This document shows, piece by piece, positions 2,747 to 46,909 of a stretch of DNA of 64,000 bases. Under the pieces are notes generated by a model. That model was not told where the DNA came from, made no database searches, and was given only the letters and a program-made list of their open reading frames with translations. Numbering within the stretch: position 1 is the first letter of the stretch; the number at the start of each line of letters is the position of its first letter. The DNA lies in the IMG/VR virus record IMGVR_UViG_3300049571_000258, positions 70,186 through 134,185 of that record. One strand, 5' to 3'. A program made the position numbers and the translations under genes. The stretch comes from a virus (Duplodnaviria > Heunggongvirae > Uroviricota > Caudoviricetes).

Positions 2747-5700
2747 GTGCCGACGAAGCGCGCACAGCGTCCGACGGGCGCCTCACGCATCATCGCCGCG
2801 TTCGGCCGGTACTACAAGCGGTCACGCGCAGGCGCGTCTCGGCGCGTCCTGGCGCTCCTGAGGCGCGAGCACCCTGAGCAGTCTCCCGCCGCCCTGCGAG
2901 CGCTGTTGGCGCGTGAGCAGGTCTACGAGGCGGAGTTCCAGCGCAAGATGACGGCGCGTCTGGAACGCGACATCCCGGGGATCCTGGCTCACGACGACCC
3001 GGATCACCGCAACCAGGCGATCGCTGACGTGCTCGCACGCGAGCGTCGGTTCGTCCAGATGCGCGAGCAGGCGATGGCCGAGCGCGCACTGGCCGCCGCC
3101 GAGATCGTGACCCTAGAGAAGATCTCGCCGCAGGGCGCGTTCTGGACGCTCTCGCCAGACGTCCAGAACCACACGCTGGACTGCCTGGCGATGGCCAACC
3201 AGTTCTGGCCCTACGAGGTGCTGCACAACATCCACCCACCACTGCACGTCGGGTGCCAGTGCCGCCTGATCCCGCTGCGCGACGCGATCGCACAGGGCCT
3301 CATGCGCGCCGACCAGATCCCCGACGCCCGCGACGCCGTCGTTCGTGCGCAGGCGGCTATCAAGGCGGCGCAGTCACTGGAGGAGGCCGACGCCAAGGCG
3401 CTGATCGAGGCGGCTTTCGATGATCGCCTGCATCCCCGCGGGCGTGACGGCCGGTTCATCCGCAAGTTCTCCAACCTGATCCACACGAAGCCTCCGGCGC
3501 AGAGCAACGGCGGGCGCTGGACGTGGGTCGCCGGGCATCGCGTCTTCGTGCCGGAGGGCCGCACCTTCCAGCGCACGTTCGGCGGGCGGACGTACGTCTC
3601 TCCGGCGCAGTCGACGAACATCTACGCCGACGGCAAGCTCGTGCCCCCCTCGCGACGCTTCGCCCCATTGACGATGCCGGACGGCAAGCTGGACACCGGC
3701 ACGATCGAGCGCATCCGCTCGGAGGTCGGCGACTTCGCCAAGCCTCCGACGTCGGAGCCGAAGCCGGGTGGTCAGCTGATCGACCACACGTGGGCGAACT
3801 GGGGCGAGTTCCAGCAGGAGACCAACGCGCTGTCGGCTGCACTGGGGCGCGAGTTCCACGTCGATGCGCAGCAGGGCAACGTCGACTTCGACACGAGGAT
3901 GTTCGACCACGCCGGGGCCACGGACTACAGCGGCAACACGACCTTCGGCCCCGACGTCTTCAACACGATCGAGAAGGAAGCGACGCGCCCGACCACGGGC
4001 CTGCCGCCGACCGATCAGGAGTTGGCCGACATCTACAACACGTACCGCGTGCAGGCGCACGAGGTCTCCCATCGAGTCAACTGGGCCAATCACCACGCGT
4101 ACTCGATGCCCGGCGGAGCGGTGCTAGAGGAGGCGCTGTCAGAGGAGGTCGCGCATGCGCTGCTGAAGGCCAACCTCCAGCGCCACGGTCGCGAGGACGT
4201 GTTGCGCTGGGGCGAGCAGCACCCGAACGCTGACGAGGTGCTGGGCACGTACCGCGCCTACCGGCTGGCCCTGAAGACGGCCCTGGACCAGATGGGCGTA
4301 CCGGAGCGCGACCGCATCCCGATCCTGTTCAAGTTGAAGTTCCAGACCGACCCGGAGGATCGTCTCAACGAGATGGTCCGCATCGGGCGCGGCTACCTCG
4401 GCGATGCGGCCCCCGACCTTGACGACCTGCGCGAGACCCTGGACCGCAGCGACTACGACGCGGCGAAGTACCGCTCGATCATTCCGGGCGACACGGGCCT
4501 ACCGGACCCCGGGACGCCGCTGACCGAGCGCTCGCTGGTCACCTCGATGCTCGACGGCGCGCAGCTGCTCTCGCGGCAGCACGCCAACGCGTCGGTCCAC
4601 TTCTCCGGCGTCGACTGGGCGTCACCGGAGATCGAGTACCCCTTCAACGCGCGCTACTTCCCCGGGCGCGGGCGCGTGGAGACCGGCGCGGGGATCTACC
4701 CGGCGATCAAGCGTGCATGGGAGGCCGACCACGGCGGCCCACCGCTGTCTGACGACGAGGCGCGCGATGGGTGGATGGCGCTGGCCAACCTCCAGCACGA
4801 GTTCCAGCATGCGGTCAACCCGACGCCCCAGCTTCAGTACGGCCAGGGTTGGAAGCGCGTCCTGGAGGAGGGCATCAACGAGGAGATCGCTCGGCAGGAG
4901 GCGGTTGCGACGGCGCGGCGCTTGGGCATGCACTCGGTCGTCGGCTGGGCGGAGCGCAACCGCGACGACTTCGCCGTGGCTGGCACCTACCAGTCCTACC
5001 GCCAGGCGGTGCGCCAGGTGCTGGAGGACGCCAAGGTGCCCAAGGAGAACTGGCGCGACCTGCTGTACCGGATGAAGTTCGAGATGACGCAGGACGAGCG
5101 CATGGCGCTGCTGCGCGATCACATGGCCAAGGCCAACGGCTGGGGGCCGGACTATGCGCGCGACCTGACGGCGCTGGCGCTCTCGCGCGGCGACCACCCG
5201 CGCGAACTCAAGATCGACGACTTCGAGCCGATGTTGGGCTGGCCGGAGTCGATCGTCCGGCCGCCGAAGCGCGTGGGTAAGGCCGACCCCGGCACGAAGC
5301 CGCTGGGCGGGAGGCTGACGCCGGAGACCGAGGAGACGTTGAGCAACCCGTCGTGGAGCTTCGAGATCGACCACACGCGCCGCAACGCCTACTACGGGGA
5401 CACGCACGTGCTGCGCGTCGCGCCGCGGTCGACGCCGGGCACGCGCCGCGTCGGCTCCGGCGACGTGTTCACCTACGACACGAAGGTGGCCGACGTCTCG
5501 ATCGAGGACGGTCGCCCGACTCCGGCCTTCAAGGGCGGCGACGGCTGGTCGCTGGATCTGCCCGACGAGCCGCAGCGGGGCATCGTGTTCCGGGGCATGT
5601 CCCACGGCGAGATGGAGACGCTGCGCAAGACCGGGCAGATCCACTCTCGCGGGCGCTTCAACCTCGGTGAGTCGCAGGTCGGTCTGACCTTCTACTCGAC

Positions 5701-6943
5701 GCAGCCCGACGAGGCCGTGGCCTACGCGGGCAACTACGCGCCGTGGCAGTTCCGCCCGACCTTCGATCGCCCAGCCTACCTGGTCGGTGTTCGTCGCCCT
5801 CCGGCGGAGCGCACCCGTCAGACACCCGGCTCGCCCTTCGAGGTCGGCGTGGAGGGCGCGATCCCCGCGTCCGACATCGTCTCGGTGACCGAGGTGCGCC
5901 CGTACGCGATCTCGGACGGCAGGGTGACCGCGGCGCCGGGCACCGAGTACGGGCTGGACACCTCCGACTACGTCATCGGCGGGGCCAAGGCGCCCCGCAC
6001 GTACCTGGCCTACCGGTCGCTGACGCCTTCCGACGTGCTGGAGGAGGCCTACCTAGAGTCCCAGCACCCGCGCTCGCGCACGGGCCAGTGGAAGCAGAAG
6101 AATCAGGGGCACCCGGCGAAGCCGCGCAGGCGCAAGAAGCGCACGGCGCCGAGGGGTCGAGACGGCGGCGCCATCACGCTGACGCCTTCGACGCCAGCCA
6201 CACCCAAGCTGCCGGAGGTCCACCTCCCATCGCTGGCGCCCGAGGTTGCGGCGATCGACGGGCCGGAGGCAATGGACGCCTATCTGGCGTCGTTGGGGAT
6301 CGAGGGCCGCATGTCGCCGACGGAGGGCATCTCGTGGGGTCCGTACTCCGCGGAGTGGTACCAGGAGATCGCACAGGCGGTGCACGACGCCGTTGCCGAG
6401 TTTCCGGTGCTGCGTGAGGGGCCTGTGCCCCTTGGGCTGATCTCGCTGCGCTCGAAGGCCGACGACATCTCGCTGTCGGACGTCTCGCGCGCGAAGGGCA
6501 TCTATGCGGTGACGACGTTCGCGCCCGCCCGCGGCCAGGTTGGCATCGTCTTCAACGACTTGACGGCCCAGTTGAACCAGAGGCACAGCGGGCAGGGCGT
6601 GAGTCCGGCGGGCGTGCTCGACTATGGCTTGGTGATGCACGAGCTTGGCCACGCGGTCGCGGACGCATCGGGCCTGTCGTGGGCGATGGGCAAGGAGGAT
6701 GTCAGCGCGTACGGCACGCGTCTGGCGTCGGCCCTCGATGCGGTGGGCCTGACACCGGATGTTGTCGGCCAGCTGTCGGAGTATGGTGCGACGTCGCCGG
6801 TGGAGGCGTGGGCCGAGATCTTCTCGACGTTGCACACGCCGGGCGCGATGGAGCGGGTGGAGGAGACGAATCCAACCCTCGCCGGGATGCTGCGTAGGCT
6901 TCAGGCAGAGCATGGCACCTACAACGGGTATCGAGTCCTGTGA
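2747..6943 (+). CDS. MuF-domain minor head protein with giant C-terminal extension ending in an HExxH zincin-like domain
   Basis: GTG start. N-terminal ~190 aa ends with the MuF signature ...HVGCQCRL. Carries a LHPRGRDGRF peptide. Internal RG...STQ...E stretch. C-terminus is HELGHAV...EAWAEIF (HExxH plus downstream Glu). Confidence 0.85.
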   Translation: MPTKRAQRPTGASRIIAAFGRYYKRSRAGASRRVLALLRREHPEQSPAALRALLAREQVYEAEFQRKMTARLERDIPGILAHDDPDHRNQAIADVLARERRFVQMREQAMAERALAAAEIVTLEKISPQGAFWTLSPDVQNHTLDCLAMANQFWPYEVLHNIHPPLHVGCQCRLIPLRDAIAQGLMRADQIPDARDAVVRAQAAIKAAQSLEEADAKALIEAAFDDRLHPRGRDGRFIRKFSNLIHTKPPAQSNGGRWTWVAGHRVFVPEGRTFQRTFGGRTYVSPAQSTNIYADGKLVPPSRRFAPLTMPDGKLDTGTIERIRSEVGDFAKPPTSEPKPGGQLIDHTWANWGEFQQETNALSAALGREFHVDAQQGNVDFDTRMFDHAGATDYSGNTTFGPDVFNTIEKEATRPTTGLPPTDQELADIYNTYRVQAHEVSHRVNWANHHAYSMPGGAVLEEALSEEVAHALLKANLQRHGREDVLRWGEQHPNADEVLGTYRAYRLALKTALDQMGVPERDRIPILFKLKFQTDPEDRLNEMVRIGRGYLGDAAPDLDDLRETLDRSDYDAAKYRSIIPGDTGLPDPGTPLTERSLVTSMLDGAQLLSRQHANASVHFSGVDWASPEIEYPFNARYFPGRGRVETGAGIYPAIKRAWEADHGGPPLSDDEARDGWMALANLQHEFQHAVNPTPQLQYGQGWKRVLEEGINEEIARQEAVATARRLGMHSVVGWAERNRDDFAVAGTYQSYRQAVRQVLEDAKVPKENWRDLLYRMKFEMTQDERMALLRDHMAKANGWGPDYARDLTALALSRGDHPRELKIDDFEPMLGWPESIVRPPKRVGKADPGTKPLGGRLTPETEETLSNPSWSFEIDHTRRNAYYGDTHVLRVAPRSTPGTRRVGSGDVFTYDTKVADVSIEDGRPTPAFKGGDGWSLDLPDEPQRGIVFRGMSHGEMETLRKTGQIHSRGRFNLGESQVGLTFYSTQPDEAVAYAGNYAPWQFRPTFDRPAYLVGVRRPPAERTRQTPGSPFEVGVEGAIPASDIVSVTEVRPYAISDGRVTAAPGTEYGLDTSDYVIGGAKAPRTYLAYRSLTPSDVLEEAYLESQHPRSRTGQWKQKNQGHPAKPRRRKKRTAPRGRDGGAITLTPSTPATPKLPEVHLPSLAPEVAAIDGPEAMDAYLASLGIEGRMSPTEGISWGPYSAEWYQEIAQAVHDAVAEFPVLREGPVPLGLISLRSKADDISLSDVSRAKGIYAVTTFAPARGQVGIVFNDLTAQLNQRHSGQGVSPAGVLDYGLVMHELGHAVADASGLSWAMGKEDVSAYGTRLASALDAVGLTPDVVGQLSEYGATSPVEAWAEIFSTLHTPGAMERVEETNPTLAGMLRRLQAEHGTYNGYRVL

Positions 6944-8178
6944 CGACGATCATTGACCCAGCCCTGATCGAACAGGCGAAGCGCGACGCGCGCGAGCGCG
7001 GGCAGACGGGGACGACCTGGGTGCCCGAGCCACTGCCGGGGGTACTCCAGGAGGCCTTCGTGGAGCGTCTGCACCCGCGCGATCGCCTGGGTCGCTGGAT
7101 CGACAAGCCGGGTGAGAAGCGGCCGACGCGGCTCATGTGGGATCTCGCCGCGTCGCTCGAAAAGACCTTCATGACGGGCAGGTTGAACACGGTGAGGGCG
7201 CGCAATGACGACGGCGAGATCGAGACGTTCGAGCACGTCTCGATTGACCCCCCGAGCGGCGCGGCGCTGGCCAAGGTTTGGGGTACCTACGTCAAGGACG
7301 GGCAGGTGCTGAAGACCGGCTGGGACATCGACGAGATCGTCGACCTGACGCCCGAGGAGTCCAAGTCCAAGAGGCCGTCCATCGCCGACATCAAGTTCTC
7401 GCCGGAGGTGCAGAAGATCGCGACCGCGGAGGACGCGAATCGCTATCTGCGTAAGCTGGGCCTGGAGGATGCCGACCTGCGTCCCGGGGATCGCGCCCTG
7501 TCTGACCCATCGCCGTCGTTTTACCGGGGGGTGGTGCAGGCGGTGGCAGACGTCGCCGAGAAGTTCCCGGCGCTCCTCAACGGCAGGTACACCAAGCTGG
7601 GCGGCGTCCGGCTGACGTCGCAGTTCCCGGAGGACAAGCTCGACTCGGGGATCGAGCAGGCGTGGGCGGTCACCGGCCCGCTGCCATCCGATCGCTGGCG
7701 CTGGGACATGGTCGACTACGACCTAGAGGCCGACGGGGAACCACCGCTGCCGCCCGAGGCGATGCAGTACGTCGTCATCAACGACACGGTCCAGACCCAG
7801 TACGGCTTCGACAACGACGACGTCGACATGGCGCGGGGTGCGTCTGGACTTGCGGTCGCCGACCGCACGGTCTATGGGCGCACGGTGCACGAGCTTGGTC
7901 ATGCGCTCGCCTGGGCGTCGGGCCAGGACCCGGAGAACTCAGATGACGAGGCTTGGGGTGGGACGGAGCAGGCTCTCAACGAGGCGCGAGTCCCGATGAG
8001 CGGCATGGCGAAGATCTCCGGCTATGGCACCTCGAATGTGGTCGAGGCGTGGGCCGAGATCTTCACGACGCTCCACACGCCCGGTGCCTACGATTGGGTG
8101 GTGGAGCACGCGCCGGAAACCAAGAAGCCGCTGGACCGCCTGCGCGGGCACAAGTACAAGGGCCAGGTGATCATGTGA
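6940..8178 (+). CDS. HPRDR-motif / HExxH zincin-like protein, paralog 2
   Basis: ERLHPRDRLGRWIDKPG near the N-terminus; C-terminal HELGHALAW...VEAWAEIFTTLHTPGA is alignable to the C-terminus of 2747..6943. Confidence 0.8.
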   Translation: MTTIIDPALIEQAKRDARERGQTGTTWVPEPLPGVLQEAFVERLHPRDRLGRWIDKPGEKRPTRLMWDLAASLEKTFMTGRLNTVRARNDDGEIETFEHVSIDPPSGAALAKVWGTYVKDGQVLKTGWDIDEIVDLTPEESKSKRPSIADIKFSPEVQKIATAEDANRYLRKLGLEDADLRPGDRALSDPSPSFYRGVVQAVADVAEKFPALLNGRYTKLGGVRLTSQFPEDKLDSGIEQAWAVTGPLPSDRWRWDMVDYDLEADGEPPLPPEAMQYVVINDTVQTQYGFDNDDVDMARGASGLAVADRTVYGRTVHELGHALAWASGQDPENSDDEAWGGTEQALNEARVPMSGMAKISGYGTSNVVEAWAEIFTTLHTPGAYDWVVEHAPETKKPLDRLRGHKYKGQVIM

Positions 8179-9230
8179 CCCTGCCGATCAGCGAGGAGCA
8201 GCTGGCGCGTGCGCTGGAGCAGGCGCGCGAGAACGTCGCGCGCGGGTCGTTCCCGAAGGTCAAGAAGTCGCAGCTGCGCGAGTCCTTCGCCGAGCGCCTA
8301 CATCCGCGCGATCGGCTGGGCCGGTTCATCGACAAGCCGAACTTCGATCGCTACGAGACGATCGGCGACATGCTGGCGAAGACCGACTGGCACCAGTACA
8401 TGCCGACGAAGTTCGACCCCGACGTGGAGGCGATCAACTCGCCCGAAGACGCGACAAGGTTCCTTCAGGGTCTCGGCTTCCAGAAGTCCAGCATGACGCC
8501 GCCGGAGGGCTACGACACCCCGTCGGCGCACTGGTATCGCGAGGTCGCACAGGCGGTCAAGGACGCGTCGACGAAGTTCCCGGCGCTCAAGAACGGGGAG
8601 CATCCCCTGGCGGGTGTTGTGATCTTCGACCCCGACCTGATTGATCCTGACGAGTTCGACGACGACGCGCGCGGGGGTGTGTGGGCGTTCACGGGCAGCG
8701 ATCCAGCGGAAGGCCACGTCACCGTGGATAGGGTGAGGGATGGCACATCGGGCCTGTTCGTCGGAATCAACCCGGACGGCGAACCCTATAAGCGGGAGAT
8801 GGACGTCTCCAGCTTCGCGGCCCCGGCGGGCGGTTCGATCTACGGGCGCATGATGCACGAGATGGGCCACGCCGTCTCGCAGGCAAACGGCTTCTCGTTC
8901 GACGAGAAGATCATGCCTCAGGTCTTCAACGGGGTGCCCGAGTTTCGTGAGGGGTACGCCAACATCCTGCGCGACTACGAGTTCAGCCTCACCGACCCGG
9001 AGATCGCAATGTTCACGCTGGCCGACATCCGCCCGTCGGAGTTGGCGGCGGTGTCGAACTACTCGCAGAAGAACCCGGCCGAGGCGTTCGCGGAACTCTT
9101 CACGACCATGAACACGCCACACGGTGCCGACTTCCTCGACCCATCCCTACGCGACCACCTCTTCAAGGCGCGGGACGCGATCAATGCCGCCTGGGAGCGT
9201 CTGCGGCCCGGCAAGGGGGATCTGCTGTGA
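8175..9230 (+). CDS. HPRDR-motif / HExxH zincin-like protein, paralog 3
   Basis: GTG at 8175 in an ATGTGA overlap; ERLHPRDRLGRFIDKPN; C-terminal HEMGHAVSQ...AEAFAELFTTMNTP. Confidence 0.8.
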   Translation: MTLPISEEQLARALEQARENVARGSFPKVKKSQLRESFAERLHPRDRLGRFIDKPNFDRYETIGDMLAKTDWHQYMPTKFDPDVEAINSPEDATRFLQGLGFQKSSMTPPEGYDTPSAHWYREVAQAVKDASTKFPALKNGEHPLAGVVIFDPDLIDPDEFDDDARGGVWAFTGSDPAEGHVTVDRVRDGTSGLFVGINPDGEPYKREMDVSSFAAPAGGSIYGRMMHEMGHAVSQANGFSFDEKIMPQVFNGVPEFREGYANILRDYEFSLTDPEIAMFTLADIRPSELAAVSNYSQKNPAEAFAELFTTMNTPHGADFLDPSLRDHLFKARDAINAAWERLRPGKGDLL

Positions 9231-10294
9231 CCTGGTACAAGCCGAAGACCCCGTTCGAGGTCGCGCCCGATTGGATGTCGTTCCGCGGCAAGACGAAGCG
9301 CCTGCCCGACTTCCCTCATCTCGAAGATGTCCAGGAGGCCTTCGTCGAGCGCCTGCATCCCCGCAATCGTCTCGGCCGGTTCGTCGACAAGCCCGACGTG
9401 CTGGACGTGACCGCGACGCAGTCGACCGGCGCGGCGCACGGGGACCTCACCTTCAAGTACGACGACGACATCGCGAAGATCCACGACGCCAGCACCGCCT
9501 TTCGCGCGCTGATCGACATGGGTCTACCAGCGTCCGACCTGCGCCTCCCCGACGAGGTCGCCCGCGACCGGGGTGAGTCGAGCGACTACTACTGGCCCGC
9601 GCAGCAGCCCGACCCGGACTGGTATCGCCAGATCGTCCAGGCGGTGCGCGATGCGCAGCGCAGGTACCCCGTCCTCAAGGACGGCCCGCGGCCCTTCCGG
9701 GGCGTCATCGTGGCGCAGCCAGAGGACCCGGGTATGGAGACTTTCCGGCGGGCTGGCGATACCACCTGGGCGGTGACCGGACCCGATCCGCACGCCAACG
9801 AGATCGTGGGCTTCGGCCGGGCGGATCGCAACAAGCACGATCCGATCTACGTCACGATCAACCCCGGCGCCGTCGCGCTCGACGCGGCCATGGGCGGCGC
9901 GGGCGACCTGATGCCATCGTCGCGCACGTCGATCTACGGCCGCATGATGCACGAACTCGGACACGCCGTCTCGCAGTCGTCGGGGTTTCTGCTCGGCGAA
10001 GCCGATGGCGAATGGGGCGGTCCGCTGAAGGGGCGTGTCCCCTTCCAGTGGGGCATGCCCGAGATCGAGATGCTGAGCCACACCGACCTCACGCTCGACG
10101 ACGTCGCAGCGATGTCGAAGTATGGCGCCTCGAACGTCGCCGAGGCGTGGGCCGAGACCTTCTCGATGCTCAACACGCCGGGCGCGATGGAGCGCGTCAC
10201 CGACCCGACGATCAAGCAGCACATGCTCGACGCACGCGATACGATCAACAGGCTATGGCAGACAAGGCACCCAGGAACCGGCCCCCTGATGTGA
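9227..10294 (+). CDS. HPRDR-motif / HExxH zincin-like protein, paralog 4
   Basis: GTG in a GTGA overlap; ERLHPRNRLGRFVDKPD; C-terminal HELGHAVSQ...AEAWAETFSMLNTPGAMERV. Confidence 0.8.
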   Translation: MTWYKPKTPFEVAPDWMSFRGKTKRLPDFPHLEDVQEAFVERLHPRNRLGRFVDKPDVLDVTATQSTGAAHGDLTFKYDDDIAKIHDASTAFRALIDMGLPASDLRLPDEVARDRGESSDYYWPAQQPDPDWYRQIVQAVRDAQRRYPVLKDGPRPFRGVIVAQPEDPGMETFRRAGDTTWAVTGPDPHANEIVGFGRADRNKHDPIYVTINPGAVALDAAMGGAGDLMPSSRTSIYGRMMHELGHAVSQSSGFLLGEADGEWGGPLKGRVPFQWGMPEIEMLSHTDLTLDDVAAMSKYGASNVAEAWAETFSMLNTPGAMERVTDPTIKQHMLDARDTINRLWQTRHPGTGPLM

Positions 10295-16723: not shown

Positions 16724-16732
16724 CTAGCGCCC

Positions 16733-16753
16733 GCACACGTCGTGTGCTACGGT
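16733..16753 (+). promoter_or_regulatory. promoter/operator: gcacacgtcgtgtgc + TACGGT, upstream of the Y-RNA-like element
   Basis: Perfect-half-site palindrome immediately followed by a TAnnnT -10 box. Confidence 0.5.
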
Positions 16754-16795
16754 GCATCCCGCCGGTTCGGAGTGACCCGGCAGACATAGACCTTA

Positions 16796-16933
16796 AGGCG
16801 GAGCGGGCCGACGGGCTGTCGGTTATCTCCTGTTAAGAGAGCGTTCCAGGTTCGAGTCCTGGCCCCCGCGCTCGTGGGGGTGGTGTAACGGCAACACGCT
16901 AACGGTCGACTCCCATTCCACGACCGCTCCGCC
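16796..16933 (+). ncRNA. yrlA: Y RNA (YrlA-like: tRNA-like module closed by a long terminal helix), the Rsr partner RNA
   Basis: 10-bp perfect long-range helix ggcggagcgg (16796-16805) with ccgctccgcc (16924-16933). It encloses a T-arm ccagg-TTCGAGT-cctgg, a D-arm-like gtgt-aacggca-acac and a GTT-loop hairpin, none of which folds as a normal tRNA. Sits between a promoter and the Ro60 gene. Confidence 0.55.
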
Positions 16934-16968
16934 CTTCGTCTTCGCACGCACGAGAGAAGAGGCCAGCC

Positions 16969-18735
16969 ATGTCGTACCTACACCAGGTCAGCACACGCCG
17001 CACGCCGCAGCGTGAGCGCATCCCGGGGCGCACCGACCAGGTGCAGAACTCCGAGGGCGGCTTCGTCTGGGCGGTCGACAAGTGGACGCGCCTGGAGCGC
17101 TTCCTGATCCTCGGCGCGGAGGGCGGCACCTACTACATCGGCGAGGCCGACCTGACGAAGCAGAACGTCGGCGTGCTCGACGACTGCCTGACGGACGACC
17201 CGGCGCGCACGGTCTCCACGATCGTCGCCGTGTCGGCTGCTGGGCGCAACGCGAAGCAGGAGCCGGTCGTCTTCGCCCTGGCGTACGCCGCCGGGTTCCG
17301 CACCGAGGCCGCTCGTCAGGCGGCGCTGCGCGCGCTGCCTGACGTTGTGCGCACCGGCTCGCACATGGGCCTGTTCCTGTCCTACGTGCAGAACTTCCGC
17401 GGCTGGGGCCGCTCGCTGCGCCGCGCCGTCGGCCAGTGGTACGTCTCGCGCGACCGCATCACGGTCGACGAGGAGACCGGCGAGGCGGTCGTCGCCGAGC
17501 GCGCCGTCGACCGGGTCGCCTTCCAGATGGTCAAGTACCGCTCGCGCTACGGGTTCTCGCAGCGCGACGCCCTGCGCAAGGCGCACCCGGCCAACCGGGT
17601 GTCGTCGCGCAACCCGACGGTCGAGGGCCTGACGGAGGACCACGAGCGGCTGTACAACTGGGTCGTCAACGGTGGGGCCGACGAGCGTCTGCCGCAGGTC
17701 GTGCACGCCTTCGAGGCGGCGCAGGCGTCCGAGTCGCCTGCGCAGACGGCGAAGCTGATCGAGCGCTACGGCAACCTGCTGACGCGCGAGATGCTGCACA
17801 CCGAGCACCTGACCGACCGGGACGTCAACCGCGCCCTGGTCGAGGCAGGCATGCCGATGGGCGCGCTCGTGCGCAACCTGGCCAATCTGACGCGCTACGG
17901 CGTCTTCGAGGACCGCGCCTACGTCAAGCAGGTCGTCGCACAGCTGACCAACCCGGACGCGGTGCGCCGGTCGCGCCTGCACCCGTACGCGGTGCTGACG
18001 GCGCTGTGCACGTACGCGGCGGGCTACTCGATGACCAACCCCGAGCAGCGCTGGAACCCGGTCGCGCAGATCGTGGACGCGCTCGACGCAGCGTTCTACC
18101 TGTCGTTCGGCAACGCCGAGCCGACGGGGAAGCGCATCCGCCTGGCGCTGGACGTGTCCGGCTCGATGGGCCACCCGATCATCACCGGCTACCGCAAGGG
18201 CCGCTACGGCATGGAGGCGGTCCCGTCAGCCGTGTCGTGCGCGGCGGGCGCGGGGGCGATGGCGCTCGTGACGGCGAACATCGAGGACGACTACGACATC
18301 GTCGCGTTCTCGGACGGCCAGACCGGCGGCAGGTACATCGGCGGGTCGTGGGGCTACAACGGGGACGCGTCGGGCGCGGTGCTGGCACCGTGCACGATCT
18401 CGCCGCGCCAGCGTCTCGACGACGTCGTCGGGCAGATGAACCGGCTGAACTTCGGGCGCACCGACTGCGCGCTACCGATCCTGGACGCGGCGCAGCGAGG
18501 CCTGGAGTTCGACGCGTTCGTGGTCTACACCGACAACGAGACGTGGTTCGGCAAGGTCCACCCGACGCAGGCGCTCGCGGAGTACCGCCAGAAGACCGGG
18601 ATCCCGGCGAAGCTGGTCGTCGTGTCGATGGAGGCCAACCAGTTCTCGATCGCTCACCCCGACGACCCGGGCATGCTCGACGTCGTCGGGTTCGACCCGG
18701 CTGCCCCGGCGGTGATCGCGGACTTCCTGCGATGA
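16969..18735 (+). CDS. rsr: Ro60 ortholog Rsr (TROVE domain plus C-terminal vWA/MIDAS domain)
   Basis: SEGGFVWAVDKWTRLERFLILGAEGGTYYI and GRNAKQEPVVFALAY match the Ro60 N-terminal signature (human [29 protein letters not shown] / GRTTKQEPMLFALAI); C-terminal LALDVSGSM...T...D MIDAS motif. Confidence 0.9.
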   Translation: MSYLHQVSTRRTPQRERIPGRTDQVQNSEGGFVWAVDKWTRLERFLILGAEGGTYYIGEADLTKQNVGVLDDCLTDDPARTVSTIVAVSAAGRNAKQEPVVFALAYAAGFRTEAARQAALRALPDVVRTGSHMGLFLSYVQNFRGWGRSLRRAVGQWYVSRDRITVDEETGEAVVAERAVDRVAFQMVKYRSRYGFSQRDALRKAHPANRVSSRNPTVEGLTEDHERLYNWVVNGGADERLPQVVHAFEAAQASESPAQTAKLIERYGNLLTREMLHTEHLTDRDVNRALVEAGMPMGALVRNLANLTRYGVFEDRAYVKQVVAQLTNPDAVRRSRLHPYAVLTALCTYAAGYSMTNPEQRWNPVAQIVDALDAAFYLSFGNAEPTGKRIRLALDVSGSMGHPIITGYRKGRYGMEAVPSAVSCAAGAGAMALVTANIEDDYDIVAFSDGQTGGRYIGGSWGYNGDASGAVLAPCTISPRQRLDDVVGQMNRLNFGRTDCALPILDAAQRGLEFDAFVVYTDNETWFGKVHPTQALAEYRQKTGIPAKLVVVSMEANQFSIAHPDDPGMLDVVGFDPAAPAVIADFLR

Positions 18736-21964: not shown

Positions 21965-22426
21965 ATGAGCAAGAAGTTGATCGTGCTGCGCGGGGCGCGC
22001 GCCCTACTGGACGACCCGGAGCGTTGGACTTGCGGCGCCCTCGGCCGCGATGACGGGTTCTCGCGCTCCTACTGCCTGATGGGCGCGCTGTGGAGTTCGT
22101 CGGGCGCCGACGTTGGGCGCTGGCTCGGTGGCGCCACGCTCACCGTCCGAGGGGGGGACTACTCGCGCTTCAAGCACATCGTGCATGCTGCGTCCGATGA
22201 GATCGAGCGCACCCTGATGTACCGCGGCGATCCCGGCATGTCGGTTGCGCAGTTCAACGACAGCCACGCGACACACCGCAAGGTGCTCGAAGTCCTCGAC
22301 GAGACGATCGCGCGCGTGGAGCGCGACGAGCGCGAGTTGGAGGAGGTCGACGTCGAGGAGGAGATCGAGGAGGCACGCGAGATCGACGAGGACGTCGAGA
22401 TCGTGCGCGAGGGGGCGGTGTCGTGA
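21965..22426 (+). CDS. member of the same small paralog family, with acidic C-terminal tail
   Basis: LRGARALLDDPERWTCGALGRDDG...YCLMGAL...AQFNDSHATHRKVLEVLDETIARVE. Confidence 0.55.
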   Translation: MSKKLIVLRGARALLDDPERWTCGALGRDDGFSRSYCLMGALWSSSGADVGRWLGGATLTVRGGDYSRFKHIVHAASDEIERTLMYRGDPGMSVAQFNDSHATHRKVLEVLDETIARVERDERELEEVDVEEEIEEAREIDEDVEIVREGAVS

Positions 22427-22986
22427 GGCGCGCGCTCGTGATCGTGGACGTGCAGCGCGACTTCTACTCCCCGGAGGGCGCGCTCTACGTCCCCGAGGGC
22501 TACCAGATCATCCCGGAGATCCAGCGCCTGGCGGCCGAGGGCGACTACGACGTCGTCGTCACCACGCAGGACTGGCACCCGCCGGAGGCCGACCACTTCG
22601 AGAAGTGGCCGGTGCACTGCGTCGCGGGGACGCCCGGCGCGCAACTGCACCCGGTCGTCCAGGCGTTCAACGTCCCGGCGTTCTACAAGGGGGTCGCCGG
22701 GGATGACGCCTACTCCGGCTTCGACGCGATCAACGACGACGGCGAGACGCTGGGCGACTTCCTGATCGAGCGCGGCGTTACACACGTCGACATCGTCGGC
22801 CTGGCGCTCGACTACTGCGTGGTGGAGACCGCCCTGGACTCCGCGACGCACTTCCGCACGACGGTGATGCACGAGGCGGTCCGGCCGGTCAACTGGGGCA
22901 CTGGGCGGGCGGCGATCGACCGCCTGGACGCCGGTGGTGTCTGCTACAAGATCCAGCGCCAGTGGGCGACAACCGCAGCGAGCTAG
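22423..22986 (+). CDS. pncA: nicotinamidase / isochorismatase-family hydrolase (PncA-like)
   Basis: ALVIVDVQRDF...DWHP.EADHF..WPVHCV.GTPGA..H...YSGF...GETL..FL...GVTHVDIVGLALDYCV, the PncA catalytic Asp/Lys/Cys pattern. Confidence 0.8.
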   Translation: MRRALVIVDVQRDFYSPEGALYVPEGYQIIPEIQRLAAEGDYDVVVTTQDWHPPEADHFEKWPVHCVAGTPGAQLHPVVQAFNVPAFYKGVAGDDAYSGFDAINDDGETLGDFLIERGVTHVDIVGLALDYCVVETALDSATHFRTTVMHEAVRPVNWGTGRAAIDRLDAGGVCYKIQRQWATTAAS

Positions 22987-27490: not shown

Positions 27491-27545
27491 TTGGTAACGA
27501 TTTGTGCTAGCGTGGCGCGCGCAAATCCGTCCAGGAGGTAGAACC

Positions 27546-28175
27546 TTGCGAAAGACCATCGTCGCGTGTGCGGCGACGGCGGCGCTGCTGTTGGCCCCGG
27601 GCACCGCGTTGGCGGGTTGGGGCTACGGTCATCATCACGACTCGGGCGGGCACGAGTGCCATCCGACGCCGCCTCCGCCTCCTCCGCCACCCCCTCCGCC
27701 GCCACCGCCGCCGCCACCGCCCCCTCCGCCTCCTCCGCCGCCACCGCCGCCTCCTCCGGCTCCCCCGGAGACGCCGCCCGCGCCGCCGGAGACGCCACCG
27801 GTGTCGCCGGAGCAGCCTCCGGCTCTCCCGGAGGCCCCGCAGCCGCCACAGGCGCCGCCCGCGCCCCCGCAGAAGCCGAAGCAGCCCAAGGCCAAGCCGA
27901 AGCCCCCGAAGCGGCCGAAGTTCGTCGCTCGCGCGAACTGCGCGACGGCGACGTCGACCGTGAGGGTGCGCGGCACCGGCATCAAGTCGGTCCGGTTCTC
28001 AGTGAAGGGCAAGACGATCCAGTCCGGCAAGCGGCACACGCTGCGCATGTCGGCGCGGGACTTCGCCGACGGGTGGTACAAGGTCAAGGCCCACGTCCGG
28101 TTCGACGGCGGCCAGACCCGCACCTACACCGTGGACGTCTACGTGTGCGAGAAGTTCTGGCCCGGCACGGGCTAG
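27546..28175 (+). CDS. secreted protein with ~50-residue polyproline tract and a C-terminal beta-rich domain
   Basis: SD caggaggtag plus TTG; signal peptide KTIVACAATAALLLAPGTALA; His/Cys patch GHHHDSGGHECH; ccgcc/ccncc repeats 27661-27770 encode poly-Pro. Confidence 0.6.
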   Translation: MRKTIVACAATAALLLAPGTALAGWGYGHHHDSGGHECHPTPPPPPPPPPPPPPPPPPPPPPPPPPPPPPPAPPETPPAPPETPPVSPEQPPALPEAPQPPQAPPAPPQKPKQPKAKPKPPKRPKFVARANCATATSTVRVRGTGIKSVRFSVKGKTIQSGKRHTLRMSARDFADGWYKVKAHVRFDGGQTRTYTVDVYVCEKFWPGTG

Positions 28176-40260: not shown

Positions 40261-41814
40261 GTGGCCACCGGCACAGCTAACGCGCTGCGTGACGAGATCG
40301 AGAACGCCGCACAGGATGAGTCCATCGACCCGTCCGCGCGCCTGCGCATGCTCTCCGCGCTTCGCGGCGACCTCGTGTCTGTGCTCGGAGCGTGCGACCA
40401 GTACATCGGCGCGCTAGAGCGCCACGCACAGTCCCTCGCCGCGGCGCAGCGCGAGAACGTGGAGATCGCGCGCCGGTTCGCCTCGCTGCGCGAGGGCATG
40501 ATCGAGGAGGGTGTCGCGACGGGCGACGAACTCGATCTCGTGGGCATCCTCTCCGAGGCCGAGCTAGACCAGCTGGAGGAGGAGGGCCTGCTCCTGGAGG
40601 CCGTTGGATACCTGCGCAAGAAGTGGGATGAGGCGCTGCACCCGCGTGGTCGTGGCGGCCAGTTCGTTGCCAAGCCGGGGGCGCCCGAGGCGCCGAAGAT
40701 CCGCAAGTCCACCTACGGCACCGACTACCAGGCGGTCGGGCCGGGCGGCGAGATCGCGGTTCGTGGCACGCGCAAGGAGGCCGAGGACGCGCTGAAGGGG
40801 ATCCGCTCGACGCAAGTCAAGCGCGATCCGGGCACGGGCAAGGGCGACACGGGCACGAAGCCTTATCAGGACCCGACCACCACCGAACTGCTCACGGACC
40901 CGGAGACGGTGCGCGAGGCGCGCAAGATGATCCTGTCCGGCAACCCGACTACGCGTGACCGCTACGCCACGGTGAAGGACGGGAAGGTCGTCTACGACAG
41001 GTCTCGCCAGAAGCTGCACAAGGAGATCATCGAGAAGTTGCTCACCGAGGACGGCGAGCACCAGGCGCAGGAGCATCCGGTGGCGTTCTTCACCGGCGGC
41101 GGAATGGCCAGCGGCAAGGGTGGCGTCGTGGACGCCATGAACGGCGGCAAGGGTCACGAGTGGAAGCCGCAGGACGCCGTCACGATCGACCCCGACAAGG
41201 TCAAGGCGCTGATGCCCGAGTTCGCGCAGCTGACCAACGCGGGCGACCCGGAGGCCAACATTCGCGTCTCTGATGAGGCGTGGGACATCTCGCAGGCGCT
41301 GGCCGCGGAGGTCCGCAAGCGCAAGTACAACGTGATCGTGGACGGCGTCGGCAACACATCGGCCGACATGGTGAGGAAGCGCGTCGACTCCTACGTGAGC
41401 GCCGGGTACACCCCACGCGCGGTGTATGTTGCGACGCCCGCGCCGGTCGCGGTCCGCAACGCGCGGATGCGCATGCAGAAGGCGATCAAGGCCGGGAAGC
41501 TGGAGTCGATCCGCTACATCCCCGACGAGATCATGTACGACACGCACGCGCGCGTGTCGAAGGTGTTCCCCGACATCTTGAAGATGTGGCCCGGCGAGAT
41601 CGAGTTGTACGACACGAACACGTGGGATGAGGAGAAGAAGGTCTTCCACACCCCGCGCCTGCTGTTGAAGAAGTCGGGCAAGGGGGAGGAGCCGGAGATC
41701 TTGGACAACGACACCTACGAGAAGTTCCTGGAGAAGGCGCGCAACCCGTACGTCGAGTGGTTCGTGCCTCCGCCGGAGGGTTCTGACGACGAGGGTTCGG
41801 AGGTCGCGGTCTGA
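40261..41814 (+). CDS. HPR-motif protein with degenerate P-loop kinase-like domain (zeta-toxin / polynucleotide-kinase-like)
   Basis: WDEALHPRGRGGQFVAKPG peptide; FFTGGGMASGKGGV (Walker-A-like GxxxxGKG); ...IVDGVGNT...R....GY...VYVATP...R...R, as in the zeta/UNAG-kinase fold. GTG at 40261 preceded by TAGACT. Confidence 0.55.
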   Translation: MATGTANALRDEIENAAQDESIDPSARLRMLSALRGDLVSVLGACDQYIGALERHAQSLAAAQRENVEIARRFASLREGMIEEGVATGDELDLVGILSEAELDQLEEEGLLLEAVGYLRKKWDEALHPRGRGGQFVAKPGAPEAPKIRKSTYGTDYQAVGPGGEIAVRGTRKEAEDALKGIRSTQVKRDPGTGKGDTGTKPYQDPTTTELLTDPETVREARKMILSGNPTTRDRYATVKDGKVVYDRSRQKLHKEIIEKLLTEDGEHQAQEHPVAFFTGGGMASGKGGVVDAMNGGKGHEWKPQDAVTIDPDKVKALMPEFAQLTNAGDPEANIRVSDEAWDISQALAAEVRKRKYNVIVDGVGNTSADMVRKRVDSYVSAGYTPRAVYVATPAPVAVRNARMRMQKAIKAGKLESIRYIPDEIMYDTHARVSKVFPDILKMWPGEIELYDTNTWDEEKKVFHTPRLLLKKSGKGEEPEILDNDTYEKFLEKARNPYVEWFVPPPEGSDDEGSEVAV

Positions 41815-44296: not shown

Positions 44297-44776
44297 ATGA
44301 CCCTACGAGAGCGAGTGCGTCAGTTCCTCGGCGAGACACGCATCCCCGATCCAGTGGACTGCGCCGAAGCGTTTCTAGAGACGCTGACCACCGAAGACTT
44401 GCGCGAGGCGCTACGCGAGTCCCTGCCGGATGTCTTCCGTGCGGAGATGAGCAAGGATCGCATGCGACCCGAGCCGCGCAACAGGAGCGCGAAGTGGAAG
44501 ATGGTCACACGCGGGTGGCTGGAGCGCCAGCACCTCCTCGCCGGTGGTGAGGCCGTGATGCTGTTGGACGCGACCGCTGAGCGCCTGCGCGCCGCGGCGG
44601 CCTACCACTTCGAGAAGGCCGCCCGCGAGGCGTCCACCGGTGACGCCTACGCCGAGATCGCCTCCGAGATGGAGTCGCGCGGCGTCAACACCGTGCGCGA
44701 CTTCGTGGAAGTCGTCGGCGAGGACGCGTTCATCGCCCTCTACAAGCCGCGCGTCGAGATGGAGGCCGCGGCATGA
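44297..44776 (+). CDS. hypothetical protein (159 aa)
   Basis: ORF track. Confidence 0.55.
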   Translation: MTLRERVRQFLGETRIPDPVDCAEAFLETLTTEDLREALRESLPDVFRAEMSKDRMRPEPRNRSAKWKMVTRGWLERQHLLAGGEAVMLLDATAERLRAAAAYHFEKAAREASTGDAYAEIASEMESRGVNTVRDFVEVVGEDAFIALYKPRVEMEAAA

Positions 44777-45699
44777 CCGCCTTGCTCGACCAGAAGCGAC
44801 GCGACACCCAAACGTCCGTTGTCGAGCGCGTCGCCGACCAAGGATCCCACGACGCCCCTGGAAGGATCGTCGGCGGCGCAAAATCTTCCCCCGGCCAGAC
44901 GCTGAGCGACACCCAATCACTTCCCGCCGGGGACCATCTTGGCGTCGGCCATGCTCACACCGACATCCAAAATTCGTTCGCCGACGCCTCGTACGCAGAC
45001 CTCCTGTTCTGGGCCGCCACGGTCGACGATCTGGAGAAGGCGCGCATCGCGGCCGAGAACCGCTTGCGCAGTTGGGAGGCCGAGCCGTCCAACGAGTTCG
45101 ACACCGCGAAGGCGCTCGCCGGTGACCCGAAGCTCGCTGCCGCGCAAGCAACGGTCGACGGCCTCCGTCTCCTGGAGGTCGACGCGATCAAGTCGCTGGA
45201 GAAGGCGATGAAGCAACACCCGCTCGGCGCGTTCGTGAAGGCGACGCCCGGCCTGGGGTTGAAGCAGACCGCCCGCCTCCTCGCTGCGATCGGGCCGGTC
45301 ACGCACTACGAGGACGACGAGGGCATCTACGAGCGCACCGTCGGCGGCTTGTGGCGCTACTGCGGGATGGACGTGCGCGACGGCGAAGCCCCGCGGCATC
45401 GCAAGGGCGAGTTCGGGGGCTGGAACGACGAGGCGCGCATGCGTGTCCGCCTGGTGGCCGAGTCGTGCATCAAGGCGCGCACTAGCCCCTACCGCGACGC
45501 CTACGACCGGGCGCGCGAGAAGTACGCCGACGCGAAGCACAAGGTCCCGTGCGTGCGCTGCGGTCCGGCCGGGAAGCCCGCGCAGCCGGGGTCTGACCTG
45601 AGCGATGGGCACAAGCACGCCCGCGCCCTGCGGATCGTCGCGAAGTCCGTCCTGCGTGACCTGTGGCGTGTGGCGAACGGGTACCCGCCGAAGTTCTGA
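44773..45699 (+). CDS. protein resembling the C-terminal Tnp domain of IS110-family recombinases, but lacking a recognisable RuvC/DEDD N-terminal domain and the SG catalytic serine
   Basis: Coiled coil, then HPLGAFVKATPGLGLKQTARLLAAIG...RTVGGLWRYCGM...RHRKGE...EARMRVRLVAESCIK, which follows the hP..l.siPGiG...aGl.P...G...R..l.. pattern of the IS110 C-terminal domain. Confidence 0.4.
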   Translation: MTALLDQKRRDTQTSVVERVADQGSHDAPGRIVGGAKSSPGQTLSDTQSLPAGDHLGVGHAHTDIQNSFADASYADLLFWAATVDDLEKARIAAENRLRSWEAEPSNEFDTAKALAGDPKLAAAQATVDGLRLLEVDAIKSLEKAMKQHPLGAFVKATPGLGLKQTARLLAAIGPVTHYEDDEGIYERTVGGLWRYCGMDVRDGEAPRHRKGEFGGWNDEARMRVRLVAESCIKARTSPYRDAYDRAREKYADAKHKVPCVRCGPAGKPAQPGSDLSDGHKHARALRIVAKSVLRDLWRVANGYPPKF

Positions 45700-45749
45700 A
45701 AGACCTGACCGCGACACCCAGATTCGCGCCGCCCCACCGTAGGGCACCG

Positions 45750-45778
45750 TTGACATCTCGTCGGCGGTGCCCTACACT
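45750..45778 (+). promoter_or_regulatory. sigma70-like promoter TTGACA, 17 bp spacer, TACACT, heading the second tRNA island
   Basis: Consensus -35/-10 at canonical spacing; followed by a leader hairpin and tRNA-Ser at 45934. Confidence 0.5.
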
Positions 45779-45812
45779 GCCGTCCCATGCGTGACCCGCG
45801 CCGATTTTATTC

Positions 45813-45853
45813 ATCCCCGCTGAGCTTGCTACTGCTTCGGTAGCGGCGGGGAT
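45813..45853 (+). other. long imperfect hairpin in the tRNA-operon leader
   Basis: atccccgc...gcggggat outer 8-bp stem with inner gctac-tgcttcg-gtagc stem-loop. Confidence 0.4.
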
Positions 45854-45933
45854 CGCGCACGGTCACATACTCACCGTCCCCCGCCGCCTAGCTCAGCGGG
45901 TGTCGTGCTTCGGCCAAGGCACTCGCTCTTCTC

Positions 45934-46021
45934 GGAGGGTGACCCTGGGCGACGGGCCTGGGACCGGATTCGAAACCCGGTGGTCTCTCACGAGGCAGGG
46001 GTTCGATTCCTCCGCCCTCCG
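45934..46021 (+). tRNA. tRNA-Ser: tRNA-Ser (CGA), type II (long variable arm)
   Basis: Acceptor ggagggt/gccctcc, anticodon loop ttCGAaa, 17-nt variable arm, T-loop ttcgatt. Confidence 0.55.
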
Positions 46022-46036
46022 CTTGCAGTACCTCAT

Positions 46037-46120
46037 GCCGAGGTGGCTGGAACGGTAGACGCGGGAGGCTCAGACCCTCCTGGGGGAGACCCCGTGCAGG
46101 TTCGACTCCTGTCCTCGGTA
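46037..46120 (+). tRNA. tRNA-Leu: tRNA-Leu (CAG), type II
   Basis: Resembles bacterial tRNA-Leu: gccgagg-tg-gc...ggtagacgc; anticodon stem ggagg/cctcc, loop ctCAGac; variable hairpin ggggg-aga-ccccg; T-arm gcagg-ttcgact-cctgt. Confidence 0.7.
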
Positions 46121-46124
46121 CTTC

Positions 46125-46214
46125 GGGCGGTGTCCGTGGTGGCACGAGGGGCGGCGTTGCTAGCGCCGTAGCGCCGGTCCTCCGGCGTCCAGGGTTCGAA
46201 GCCCTGACCGCCCG
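46125..46214 (+). tRNA. tRNA-Ser: tRNA-Ser (GCT), type II
   Basis: Acceptor gggcggt/accgccc perfect; anticodon stem cggcg/cgccg, loop ttGCTag; variable hairpin gccgg-tcct-ccggc; T-arm caggg-ttcgaag-ccctg. Confidence 0.65.
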
Positions 46215-46273
46215 CTCCAGCGGAGGACCCGTGGGTGTCGCCGCTCTCCTGGCTGAAGCGGGCGGTCTTTCTC

Positions 46274-46348
46274 GGAACGGTAGCTCAGTCGTGGTCAGAG
46301 CGCGGGCTTGAAACACCCGAGGTCGTCGGTTCAACTCCGACCCGTTCC
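46274..46348 (+). tRNA. tRNA-Phe: tRNA-Phe (GAA)
   Basis: Acceptor ggaacgg/ccgttcc perfect, D gctc/gagc, loop ttGAAac, T-arm gtcgg-ttcaact-ccgac. Confidence 0.65.
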
Positions 46349-46354
46349 GCTCGT

Positions 46355-46435
46355 GTCGGGGATGCCCCCTGGGAGGTGGCAGCTGCCTGTAAAGCAGTGG
46401 CCTCGTGCGTGTGGGTTCGAATCCCTCCCCCGGCA
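46355..46435 (+). tRNA. tRNA-Tyr: tRNA-Tyr (GTA), long variable region
   Basis: Acceptor gtcgggg/ccccggc, anticodon stem gctgc/gcagt, loop ctGTAaa, T-loop ttcgaat. Confidence 0.55.
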
Positions 46436-46439
46436 CCTA

Positions 46440-46460
46440 GCTCACAACGTGTGCTATAGT
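46440..46460 (+). promoter_or_regulatory. promoter/operator: gctcacaacgtgtgc + TATAGT
   Basis: Immediately after tRNA-Tyr; followed ~80 nt later by a strong terminator; no ORF in between. Confidence 0.5.
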
Positions 46461-46544
46461 GCCCGGCACATACTGATCCTCGTGATGTAGCCCATCGCGG
46501 GCGGAGGTCAGGCACGAGAGCACAGCCGCATCTGAGTAGGCTGA

Positions 46545-46576
46545 GCGCCCCGGCATCCGTCGGGGCGCTTCTTGTT
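46545..46576 (+). terminator. intrinsic terminator (8-bp GC stem plus TTCTTGTT)
   Basis: gcgccccg-gcatccgt-cggggcgc-ttcttgtt. Confidence 0.6.
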
Positions 46577-46593
46577 GAGCGCCGAGAAGATCT

Positions 46594-46602
46594 CTGCTAC
46601 GC
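46594..46602 (+). promoter_or_regulatory. extended -10 TGcTACGCT placing the TSS at the 5' end of the tRNA (CAT)
   Basis: The -10 ends 7 nt before the first tRNA nucleotide. Confidence 0.4.
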
Positions 46603-46609
46603 TCTCGCG

Positions 46610-46683
46610 AGCGCGGTGGAGCAGTCCGGTAGCTCGTCTGGCTCATAACCAGAAGGTCGCGGGTTCGAATCCCGCTCGCGCCA
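46610..46683 (+). tRNA. tRNA-Met: tRNA with CAT anticodon (Met; initiator-like 1:72 mismatch, or Ile2)
   Basis: Closely resembles E. coli tRNA-fMet (tggagcag.c.ggtagctcgtc.ggctcataacc.gaaggtcg.gggttcaaatcc); A1/C72 unpaired; only 2 GC pairs at anticodon stem 29-31. Confidence 0.65.
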
Positions 46684-46902: not shown

Positions 46903-46909
46903 CTGACTT

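Follow-up and report, generated by a model that had tools for sequence, protein, structure and literature searches.

What does a gene for a nicotinamidase do in a phage, and could it help the phage to withstand immunity that works by depleting nicotinamide adenine dinucleotide (NAD+)? The question is raised by pncA, a gene in a 64,000-nucleotide stretch of the IMG/VR virus record IMGVR_UViG_3300049571_000258 (positions 70,186 to 134,185 of that record; hereafter the window), whose product, PncA, was read in a preliminary description as a phage-encoded nicotinamidase and a possible counter to NAD-depleting host defences. Assignment of this product to the canonical PncA-type class of nicotinamidases is strongly supported by its sequence and by a structural model, and we favor the reading that it serves maintenance of NAD+ through the Preiss-Handler pathway of the host, to which we give a probability of about 0.6. 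The gene and the positions within it on which the argument turns are as follows.

22410..22415, + strand: Shine-Dalgarno-like run AGGGGG, ending 7 nt 5' of the GTG, as read from the sequence
22423..22986, + strand: pncA-like gene, predicted nicotinamidase/pyrazinamidase with an isochorismatase-like hydrolase fold (open reading frame, Pfam, PDB, AlphaFold2 and Foldseek)
22447..22449, + strand: codon of the catalytic Asp, D9 (Mycobacterium tuberculosis D8)
22570..22617, + strand: metal-binding segment D50-W-H52...H58...W62-P-V-H65 (M. tuberculosis D49, H51, H57, W68 and H71)
22687..22689, + strand: codon of the catalytic Lys, K89, in FYKG (M. tuberculosis K96; invariant)
22816..22818, + strand: codon of the nucleophile Cys, C132, in VGLALDYC (M. 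tuberculosis C138)

The open reading frame (ORF) begins with GTG, ends with TAG and encodes 187 aa. The GC content at its third codon positions (GC3) reaches 0.95, the window as a whole being 67.8% GC, and because this value is typical of the real genes in the window we regard the ORF as a genuine gene. The GTG overlaps the TGA stop codon of an upstream DUF6197 gene (GTGA, 22423-22426), which suggests translational coupling, and the AGGGGG run is a putative ribosome-binding signal; a scan for promoters and terminators around pncA revealed no consensus between neighboring genes. The N-terminus of the product, MRRALVIVDVQRDF, aligns with that of M. tuberculosis PncA, MRALIIVDVQNDF, from residue 2–3, and the GTG start is therefore taken to be correct. 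Independent gene calls gave an identical 187-aa product on a Logan contig and a 99% identical one, also of 187 aa, on a Joint Genome Institute (JGI) contig, and these two agreeing calls, together with the N-terminal alignment, rule out a mis-called ORF or start.

The isochorismatase/nicotinamidase fold put forward in the preliminary description is borne out by several comparisons. The protein matches the Pfam family Isochorismatase (PF00857) at 1.2e-15 (58.5 bits, the cut-off being 27) and has 2568 homologues at E<=1e-5, a similarity well outside what chance would give; its PHROGs match is phrog_19305, a family of unknown function. In a sequence search of the PDB, nicotinamidases or proteins of the PncA/PNC1 type fill the top seven places; M. 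tuberculosis PncA (3PL1, 1.7e-30) comes first, and the best matches also include Pyrococcus horikoshii 1ILW, Leishmania PNC1 (3R2J), Acinetobacter baumannii 2WT9 and yeast Pnc1 (2H0R). An AlphaFold2 model of the protein has a predicted local distance difference test score (pLDDT) of 94.9 and a predicted template modelling score (pTM) of 0.91, and when it was compared with the PDB by Foldseek the first 11 ranks were occupied entirely by nicotinamidases, with template modelling (TM) scores of 0.77–0.86. The first protein of another kind appears at rank 12 with an E-value about five orders weaker, and CSHase, RutB, biuret hydrolase, triuret hydrolase and isochorismatase all rank below the nicotinamidases. 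The discrimination of PncA from other members of the isochorismatase family, which had been proposed as a check, thus falls on the side of the nicotinamidases.

The residues of the active site tell the same story. Alignment to 3PL1 places the catalytic triad D9/K89/C132 on M. tuberculosis D8/K96/C138, the metal ligands D50/H52/H58/H65 on D49/H51/H57/H71, and the pocket aromatics F14/W62/Y97 on F13/W68/Y103; the segment A-x-D-x-C, predicted from the sequence match to form the oxyanion and cis-peptide region, is present as A128-L-D130-Y-C132 (M. tuberculosis A134). The roles of these triad, metal-ligand, oxyanion and pocket residues we take to be those of the established PncA literature. In an alignment with 56 homologues D9, D50, H52, H65, K89 and C132 are invariant, as are F14, W62, P63, Y97, S98 and F100; H58 is variable, as expected for the fourth metal ligand. 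Among 67 distinct viral homologues each catalytic residue is kept in 65 to 67, with D9 present in all 67 and C132 in 65. The motif IVDVQRDF (residues 7–14), the lysine and the cysteine of the pattern given in the preliminary description are thus all present, and the one detail in need of (minor) correction is its "GxC" pattern, the actual motif being A-x-D-x-C within VGLALDYC. Absence of the Asp/Lys/Cys triad would have spoken against a nicotinamidase, and both triad and metal site are intact. The metal site, composed of an Asp and two or three His (DxH...H...H), separates nicotinamidases from most other isochorismatase-family members, and together with the fold ranking it argues against a hydrolase of that family other than a nicotinamidase, a reading that we reject. 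On these comparisons of sequence and model, PncA is very probably an active nicotinamidase.

The reaction would then follow the usual course for this class. Asp50, His52, His58 and His65 would bind a metal ion that in turn holds the pyridine nitrogen of nicotinamide, and Cys132 would attack the amide, with Asp9 acting as the base and with Lys89 and the backbone of A128 providing stabilization; ammonia would leave and water would hydrolyze the thioester, yielding nicotinic acid (EC 3.5.1.19). Nicotinate could then enter the Preiss-Handler route, in which the host enzymes PncB, NadD and NadE would convert it to NAD+, keeping NAD+ available for phage replication. The benefit would be expected to be greatest when NADase defences or toxins cleave NAD+ to nicotinamide, or in a host that itself makes hardly any nicotinamidase or none.

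Support for a role in NAD+ synthesis comes from the company that PncA keeps in other viruses. At least 161 IMG/VR viral contigs, many of them 200–580 kb long, carry PncA relatives. We clustered the ORFs lying within 8 kb of PncA at 80 of these loci, and dereplicated the PncA proteins at 90% identity into 55 groups. NAPRTase/PncB is found near viral PncA at 41 of the 80 loci (28 of the 55 groups) and NAD synthase/NadE at 40 (26 groups), with PncB and NadE occurring together in 22 groups; NUDIX-NrtR is present at 18 loci (11 groups), dCMP deaminase at 17 (13 groups), Ro60/TROVE at 16 (11 groups) and a NadD-like adenylyltransferase at seven loci. On one 212-kb contig (L013) PncB, NadE, NadD and PncA lie back to back, and all four genes are likewise present on L065/66 and L078; these four-gene sets constitute a complete Preiss-Handler set. 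From these linkage counts it follows that viral PncA habitually belongs to a Preiss-Handler NAD+ module, and that a lone PncA recurs too: at the high-GC viral loci it is mostly PncA alone that is found, with PncB accompanying it only on L007.

The flanks of the IMG/VR loci also hold genes of RNA repair, namely RtcB, RNA ligase, PNKP, PTH2 and CCA-adding enzyme. We observed that in unrelated phage contigs (L002-L081) PncA recurs in islands of genes for NAD+ synthesis and for RNA repair or surveillance (for example, L011 1382-16235 and L013 1146-18242), which contain dCMP deaminase and a radical-SAM protein as well; the trio of Ro60, dCMP deaminase and PncA from those islands is also found in the window, within 10 kb. 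The IMG/VR loci have only PncA, dCMP deaminase or Ro60 in common with the window, and this rules out those contigs as relatives of the phage.

Whether this phage encodes the later steps of the pathway itself was examined across about 70 kb, comprising the 64-kb window and 6.2 kb upstream of it (Logan contig L087), the Logan contigs stopping at the 3' end of the window; within the window, approximately 100 called ORFs were compared with Pfam, and with custom hidden Markov models (HMMs) and tblastn searches derived from viral PncB, NadE and Nudix sequences. The results, with several other considerations, weigh against the favored reading. There is no PncB, NadD, NadE, NadV/Namat, Adps, NadR, PnuC or NUDIX in the window: Pfam finds no NAPRTase-family, CTP_transf_like, NAD_synthase, phosphoribosyl pyrophosphate (PRPP)-synthetase-like (Pribosyl_synth), NUDIX, NadR or PnuC domain, the viral PncB, NadE and Nudix HMMs give only E>5, and tblastn only E>=0.007. 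The 6.2 kb upstream has no NAD-gene match on record, so that the search for NadV, Namat or PncB homologues, which the preliminary description had proposed, came back empty for the window and this flank. pncA is therefore an orphan within about 70 kb, and a single entry enzyme may add little. A metagenome scan for the rest of the genome returned only an unrelated 30% match. The immediate neighbors of pncA are nucleotide-pool enzymes and genes of unknown function, with no NAD or known anti-defence genes among them; they lie in a neighborhood with two DUF6197 genes, MazG, a gene with DUF4406 and dGTP_diPhyd_N domains, dCMP deaminase, a Clp_N protein, RNase H and Ro60, and the description of the gene as sitting among auxiliary genes is to that extent accurate. 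The only NCBIfam match is to the PncA equivalog model NF008623 (PRK11609, bifunctional nicotinamidase/pyrazinamidase), at 91.2 bits against a curated cut-off of 174, and under that model the protein is thus no equivalog. The model has 213 positions and the match is split over two stretches; we tentatively attribute the low score to a longer model of enterobacterial type, and give the shortfall no weight against the enzyme class.

There are also considerations of physiology on the same side. NADase defences are effective in Escherichia coli although this host possesses PncA, PncB, NadD and NadE, and a host-dependent Preiss-Handler pathway is therefore not obviously fast enough. The route moreover costs PRPP and about three ATP, with three ATP-consuming host steps following PncA.

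Depletion of NAD+ is among the commonest bacterial anti-phage strategies, and the SIR2, TIR and DSR defences, like several actinobacterial NAD-targeting toxins, yield nicotinamide as their product; pncA would therefore recycle exactly what those defences and toxins release. By analogy an NAD-restoring and counter-defence role is plausible, and it is weakened by the orphan state of pncA, there being no partner genes. That selection favored PncA expressly for its effect against NAD-depleting immunity is a tentative proposal, again by analogy, and one that we consider less likely than not. It is doubtful that pncA represents the minimal, single-gene form of a fourth phage route of NAD+ reconstitution, in which host PncB, NadD and NadE would recycle the nicotinamide released by NADases; were it so, the single-gene route would matter most in hosts without PncA and NadV, and the viral PncA-PncB-NadE(-NadD) clusters would represent this counter-defence strategy at full length. 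The interpretation offered in the preliminary description is, overall, partly supported, its counter-defence component being something that we infer. Even so, pncA and the linkage of viral PncA to PncB and NadE (with or without NadD) make the deamidating, or Preiss-Handler, branch a candidate countermeasure; the lone gene bears on whether a single entry enzyme suffices, and the set of phage NAD-salvage genes is extended to a deep-branching high-GC phage lineage.

The absence of partners nearby leaves room for them to lie farther away, and the phage could encode a complete Preiss-Handler pathway with PncB, NadD and NadE in the approximately 60 kb outside the window and its upstream extension. 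The 99%-identical PncA (P0001), also read on a 2.5-kb contig of sample 3300056388, is recorded on a JGI contig of 134,185 bp, and therefore roughly half of the genome, and so much of it, lies outside the ~70 kb examined; about half of the viral PncA loci, moreover, carry PncB and/or NadE, and some NadD. In those other phages, however, the partners sit within about 5 kb of PncA, and here the neighborhood of pncA is fully visible and none is present. The mostly orphan state of PncA at high-GC viral loci, PncB being found only on L007, points the same way, and we consider a complete phage pathway unlikely.

A second alternative is that PncA does not serve to make NAD+, and instead clears nicotinamide so as to lift product or feedback inhibition from enzymes that consume NAD+, for example sirtuins, ADP-ribosyltransferases (ARTs) or Tpt1-type RNA repair proteins. 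Yeast Pnc1 activates Sir2 by nicotinamide clearance, and the fold match of PncA to Pnc1 is strong; PncA also lies beside RNA-repair genes (Ro60, RtcB, RNA ligase, PNKP and CCA-adding enzyme) in unrelated phages, Ro60 lies 3.7 kb upstream here, and an orphan pncA is easier to reconcile with clearance than with a pathway. Among the Pfam matches of the window, nevertheless, there is no domain of the Sir2, ART, macro or Tpt1 kind, and clearance of nicotinamide would de-inhibit the SIR2 and TIR NADases of the host as well, to the detriment of the phage. Since the frequent linkage of viral PncA to PncB and NadE favors NAD+ synthesis over clearance, this explanation appears quite unlikely.

A third view would make pncA a recently captured host gene, carried as a neutral passenger or moron with no specific role in the phage. 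The nearest PncA proteins, which are 47–54% identical, are from Corynebacterium, Pseudonocardiaceae, Acidimicrobiia and Actinomyces, and the gene is closer to these actinobacterial cellular proteins than to the best viral copies, at 41–44% identity. In two relatives of about 50% identity, located on long cellular contigs, the gene adjoins one encoding a QRPTase_N domain, which we read as pncB and the arrangement as the classical pncA-pncB salvage pair. A tblastn search of 50,697 phage records (INPHARED) found PncA-like genes in only 11, none from actinophages, so that among the cultured actinophages in that collection there is none with PncA. But a nearest cellular protein of only ~50% identity is not what recent capture from a sampled donor would leave, and the catalytic, metal and pocket residues are all intact. 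The GC3 of 0.95 and the stop/start overlap resemble those of resident phage genes, and pncA is conserved with the same neighbors in an independent sample, the order DUF6197-DUF6197-pncA recurring on an independent JGI contig. Another phage-like high-GC contig (L086), which is small and carries Ku and DUF932, encodes a PncA of 50% identity and shares only this protein with the window. Recent capture as a passenger is very unlikely in our view.

Least likely of all is that PncA acts on some other amide (a modified base, a nucleotide precursor or a host metabolite) within a nucleotide-pool module of MazG, the dGTP/dATP diphosphohydrolase-like protein and dCMP deaminase, as the nucleotide-metabolism genes immediately beside it, the presence of dCMP deaminase near viral PncA in 13 of the 55 groups, and the shortfall against the NCBIfam equivalog might suggest, because the nicotinamide-specific features (the pyridine-N metal site and the F14/W62/Y97 pocket) are conserved and CSHase, RutB, biuret and triuret hydrolases and isochorismatase are clearly lower in the fold search.

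NAD+ maintenance through the host pathway is thus the reading we retain, and the setting of the gene bears out that it is phage-encoded. The structural genes and those directly upstream of pncA are as follows.

657-2729: portal gene (PHROG, 3.7e-35)
L087 2613-5150 (~3.6-6.1 kb upstream of window position 1): terminase large subunit, GpA_ATPase, 845 aa
21520-21930 and 21965-22426, + strand: two DUF6197 paralogues (PF19698), co-oriented with pncA, the second overlapping the start of pncA

Because terminase, portal and tRNA arrays are present, the window is a segment of a phage, and a non-phage origin is ruled out on the same grounds. The tRNA genes, 20 in all, form two arrays, and nearly all window genes share one strand; other genes encode RecA, DnaG primase, RNase H, Ro60 (TROVE+vWA), a Clp_N protein and a protein of 1160 aa in which PG_binding_1 repeats occur three times. 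An intein seems to interrupt the terminase large subunit on L087 (Intein_splicing, a weak match). A megablast search for close cultured relatives gave only a 130-nt match in the Clp gene, to the Mycobacterium phages Myrna and Phabba; the portal is no more than 26% identical to that of any cultured phage, and comparison of RecA was uninformative for placing the phage. Judged by sequence, the phage is very distant from any cultured phage and appears to represent a deep-branching lineage. Composition and the nearest cellular PncA homologues point to an actinobacterial host, and the phage is probably an actinophage.

The DUF6197 genes beside pncA are taken here as context only. The family has at least seven copies in the window, two of them upstream of pncA and five in a tandem run (61371-63808), and the copies share the motif GW.QG...C(A)xGA...WND.

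The Ro60 orthologue (TROVE + vWA) occupies 16969-18735 and is preceded by a "tRNA-Asn" at 16798-16871 that is called by ARAGORN and missed by the Rfam tRNA model even at E<=0.1. The minimum free energy fold of 16725-16968 has a tRNA-like T-arm within a long-range stem of about 10 bp (GGCGGAGCGG/CCGCUCCGCC), and it matches the architecture of the bacterial YrlA/Y-RNA partners of Ro60; its fold z-score is not significant.

Several further features of the window deserve mention. A 224-aa ORF at 56240-56914 resembles DruA of the Druantia defence system in a Pfam match that is weak and yet exceeds the threshold (PF14236, 8e-8, 32 bits versus 27), a domain that is likewise precomputed on the Logan contig. 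At 27504-28175 there is an ORF whose product starts like a signal peptide and continues with some 35 prolines in a row and PE/PA/PQ repeats; an out-of-frame Arg-rich shadow ORF overlaps it. Just downstream of the DnaG primase gene, 40261-41814 encodes a 517-aa protein with a C-terminal Zeta_toxin/AAA_33 kinase domain (9e-25), which could be a PNK-like or a UDP-N-acetylglucosamine (UNAG)-kinase-like enzyme. Within 44773-46980, a transposase-like gene (phrog_4285, 2.8e-73) is located directly upstream of the second tRNA array (seven tRNAs, 46037-46980). Five large ORFs of 1398, 412, 351, 355 and 831 aa (2747-10294 and 53504-55999) have no Pfam or PHROG match; four of them come after the portal gene and presumably encode novel virion proteins.

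Among characterized proteins the closest counterpart of PncA is the M. tuberculosis enzyme (3PL1), which is nearly equal in length (186 versus 187 aa) and 36% identical, with a Foldseek E-value of 1.9e-17 and a TM score of 0.83, and which has the same triad, all four metal ligands and the pocket residues. The copy described here differs from that enzyme and its actinobacterial clade in being phage-encoded, in having no adjacent pncB, and in that its nearest cellular homologues are only about 50% identical to it. Yeast Pnc1 has the same fold and catalytic machinery (TM 0.84–0.86), and differs in its extra insertions (216 aa) and in a known role that includes activation of Sir2.

PncA-like proteins of other phages have been annotated before. 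Bacillus phage G gp275 is annotated as PncA-like, of unknown function (PMC12484599), and together with the "ydjB" product of Acinetobacter phage MD-2021a it is homologous to the protein described here, at 31–38% identity; these belong to other phage lineages and hosts, and the gene in the window is nearer to M. tuberculosis-type PncA. PncA, PncB and NadE are all missing from a systematic survey of NAD+-ADPr systems in viruses (PMC9503650), and for mycobacteriophages only an orphan NAMPT is discussed (PMC12363180).

To date, rebuilding of NAD+ has been proven for three phage pathways, none of which uses the deamidating Preiss-Handler branch. NAD+ reconstitution pathways 1 and 2 (NARP1, Adps+Namat; NARP2, Nampt+Nmnat) counter NADase defences (bioRxiv 10.1101/2024.02.11.579819), as does NARP3 (PnuC with a NadR-like enzyme; PMC13464706), and PncA is mentioned in neither of these papers. 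NARP2 (NadV/Nampt + Nmnat, as in Vibrio phage KVP40) is the most similar in that it starts from nicotinamide and uses classical salvage chemistry; it differs in converting nicotinamide to NMN and then to NAD+ in two phage-encoded steps, with a counter-defence effect that was shown experimentally, whereas the PncA described here would deamidate nicotinamide and need three more host steps. NARP1 and NARP3 follow the same logic, with the phage rebuilding NAD+, by entirely different chemistry and protein families. The preliminary description had set the gene apart from NARP1 and NARP2, and the comparison agrees, also for NARP3: the pair of PRPS-like Adps and NAPRTase-family Namat is absent from the window and the upstream 6.2 kb, the NadV/Nampt and Nmnat (CTP_transf_like/NUDIX) pair from the window, and the PnuC and NadR-like pair from the window as judged by Pfam. 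A phage Preiss-Handler module of PncB, NadD and NadE is likewise not present within the window and upstream flank. Our literature search found no experimentally tested phage PncA and no "NARP4" in this sense.

The systems most similar in gene content are the "NAD-jumbo phages", described with pncB-nadD-nadE clusters in a study that also mentions "phage-encoded ... pncA genes" (Microbiome 2024, PMC11662467), and the IMG/VR modules described above. These resemble the phage described here in having a PncA-family gene on a large phage, an auxiliary region with Ro60 and dCMP deaminase, and the same proposed role in NAD+ supply from nicotinamide or nicotinate; they differ in that PncB, NadE and sometimes NadD lie next to PncA, mostly in low-GC jumbo phages, whereas the phage described here is 68% GC, has no other genes in common with them, and carries PncA alone in ~70 kb. 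With these clusters, gp275 of phage G and the MD-2021a protein already known, the idea of a phage PncA is less novel than the preliminary description implied, and the advance is incremental, concerning a textbook enzyme family of which phage copies had been annotated previously. Phage pncA genes and phage Preiss-Handler clusters were thus known computationally, and what the window adds to them is a new lineage and the orphan form of the gene.

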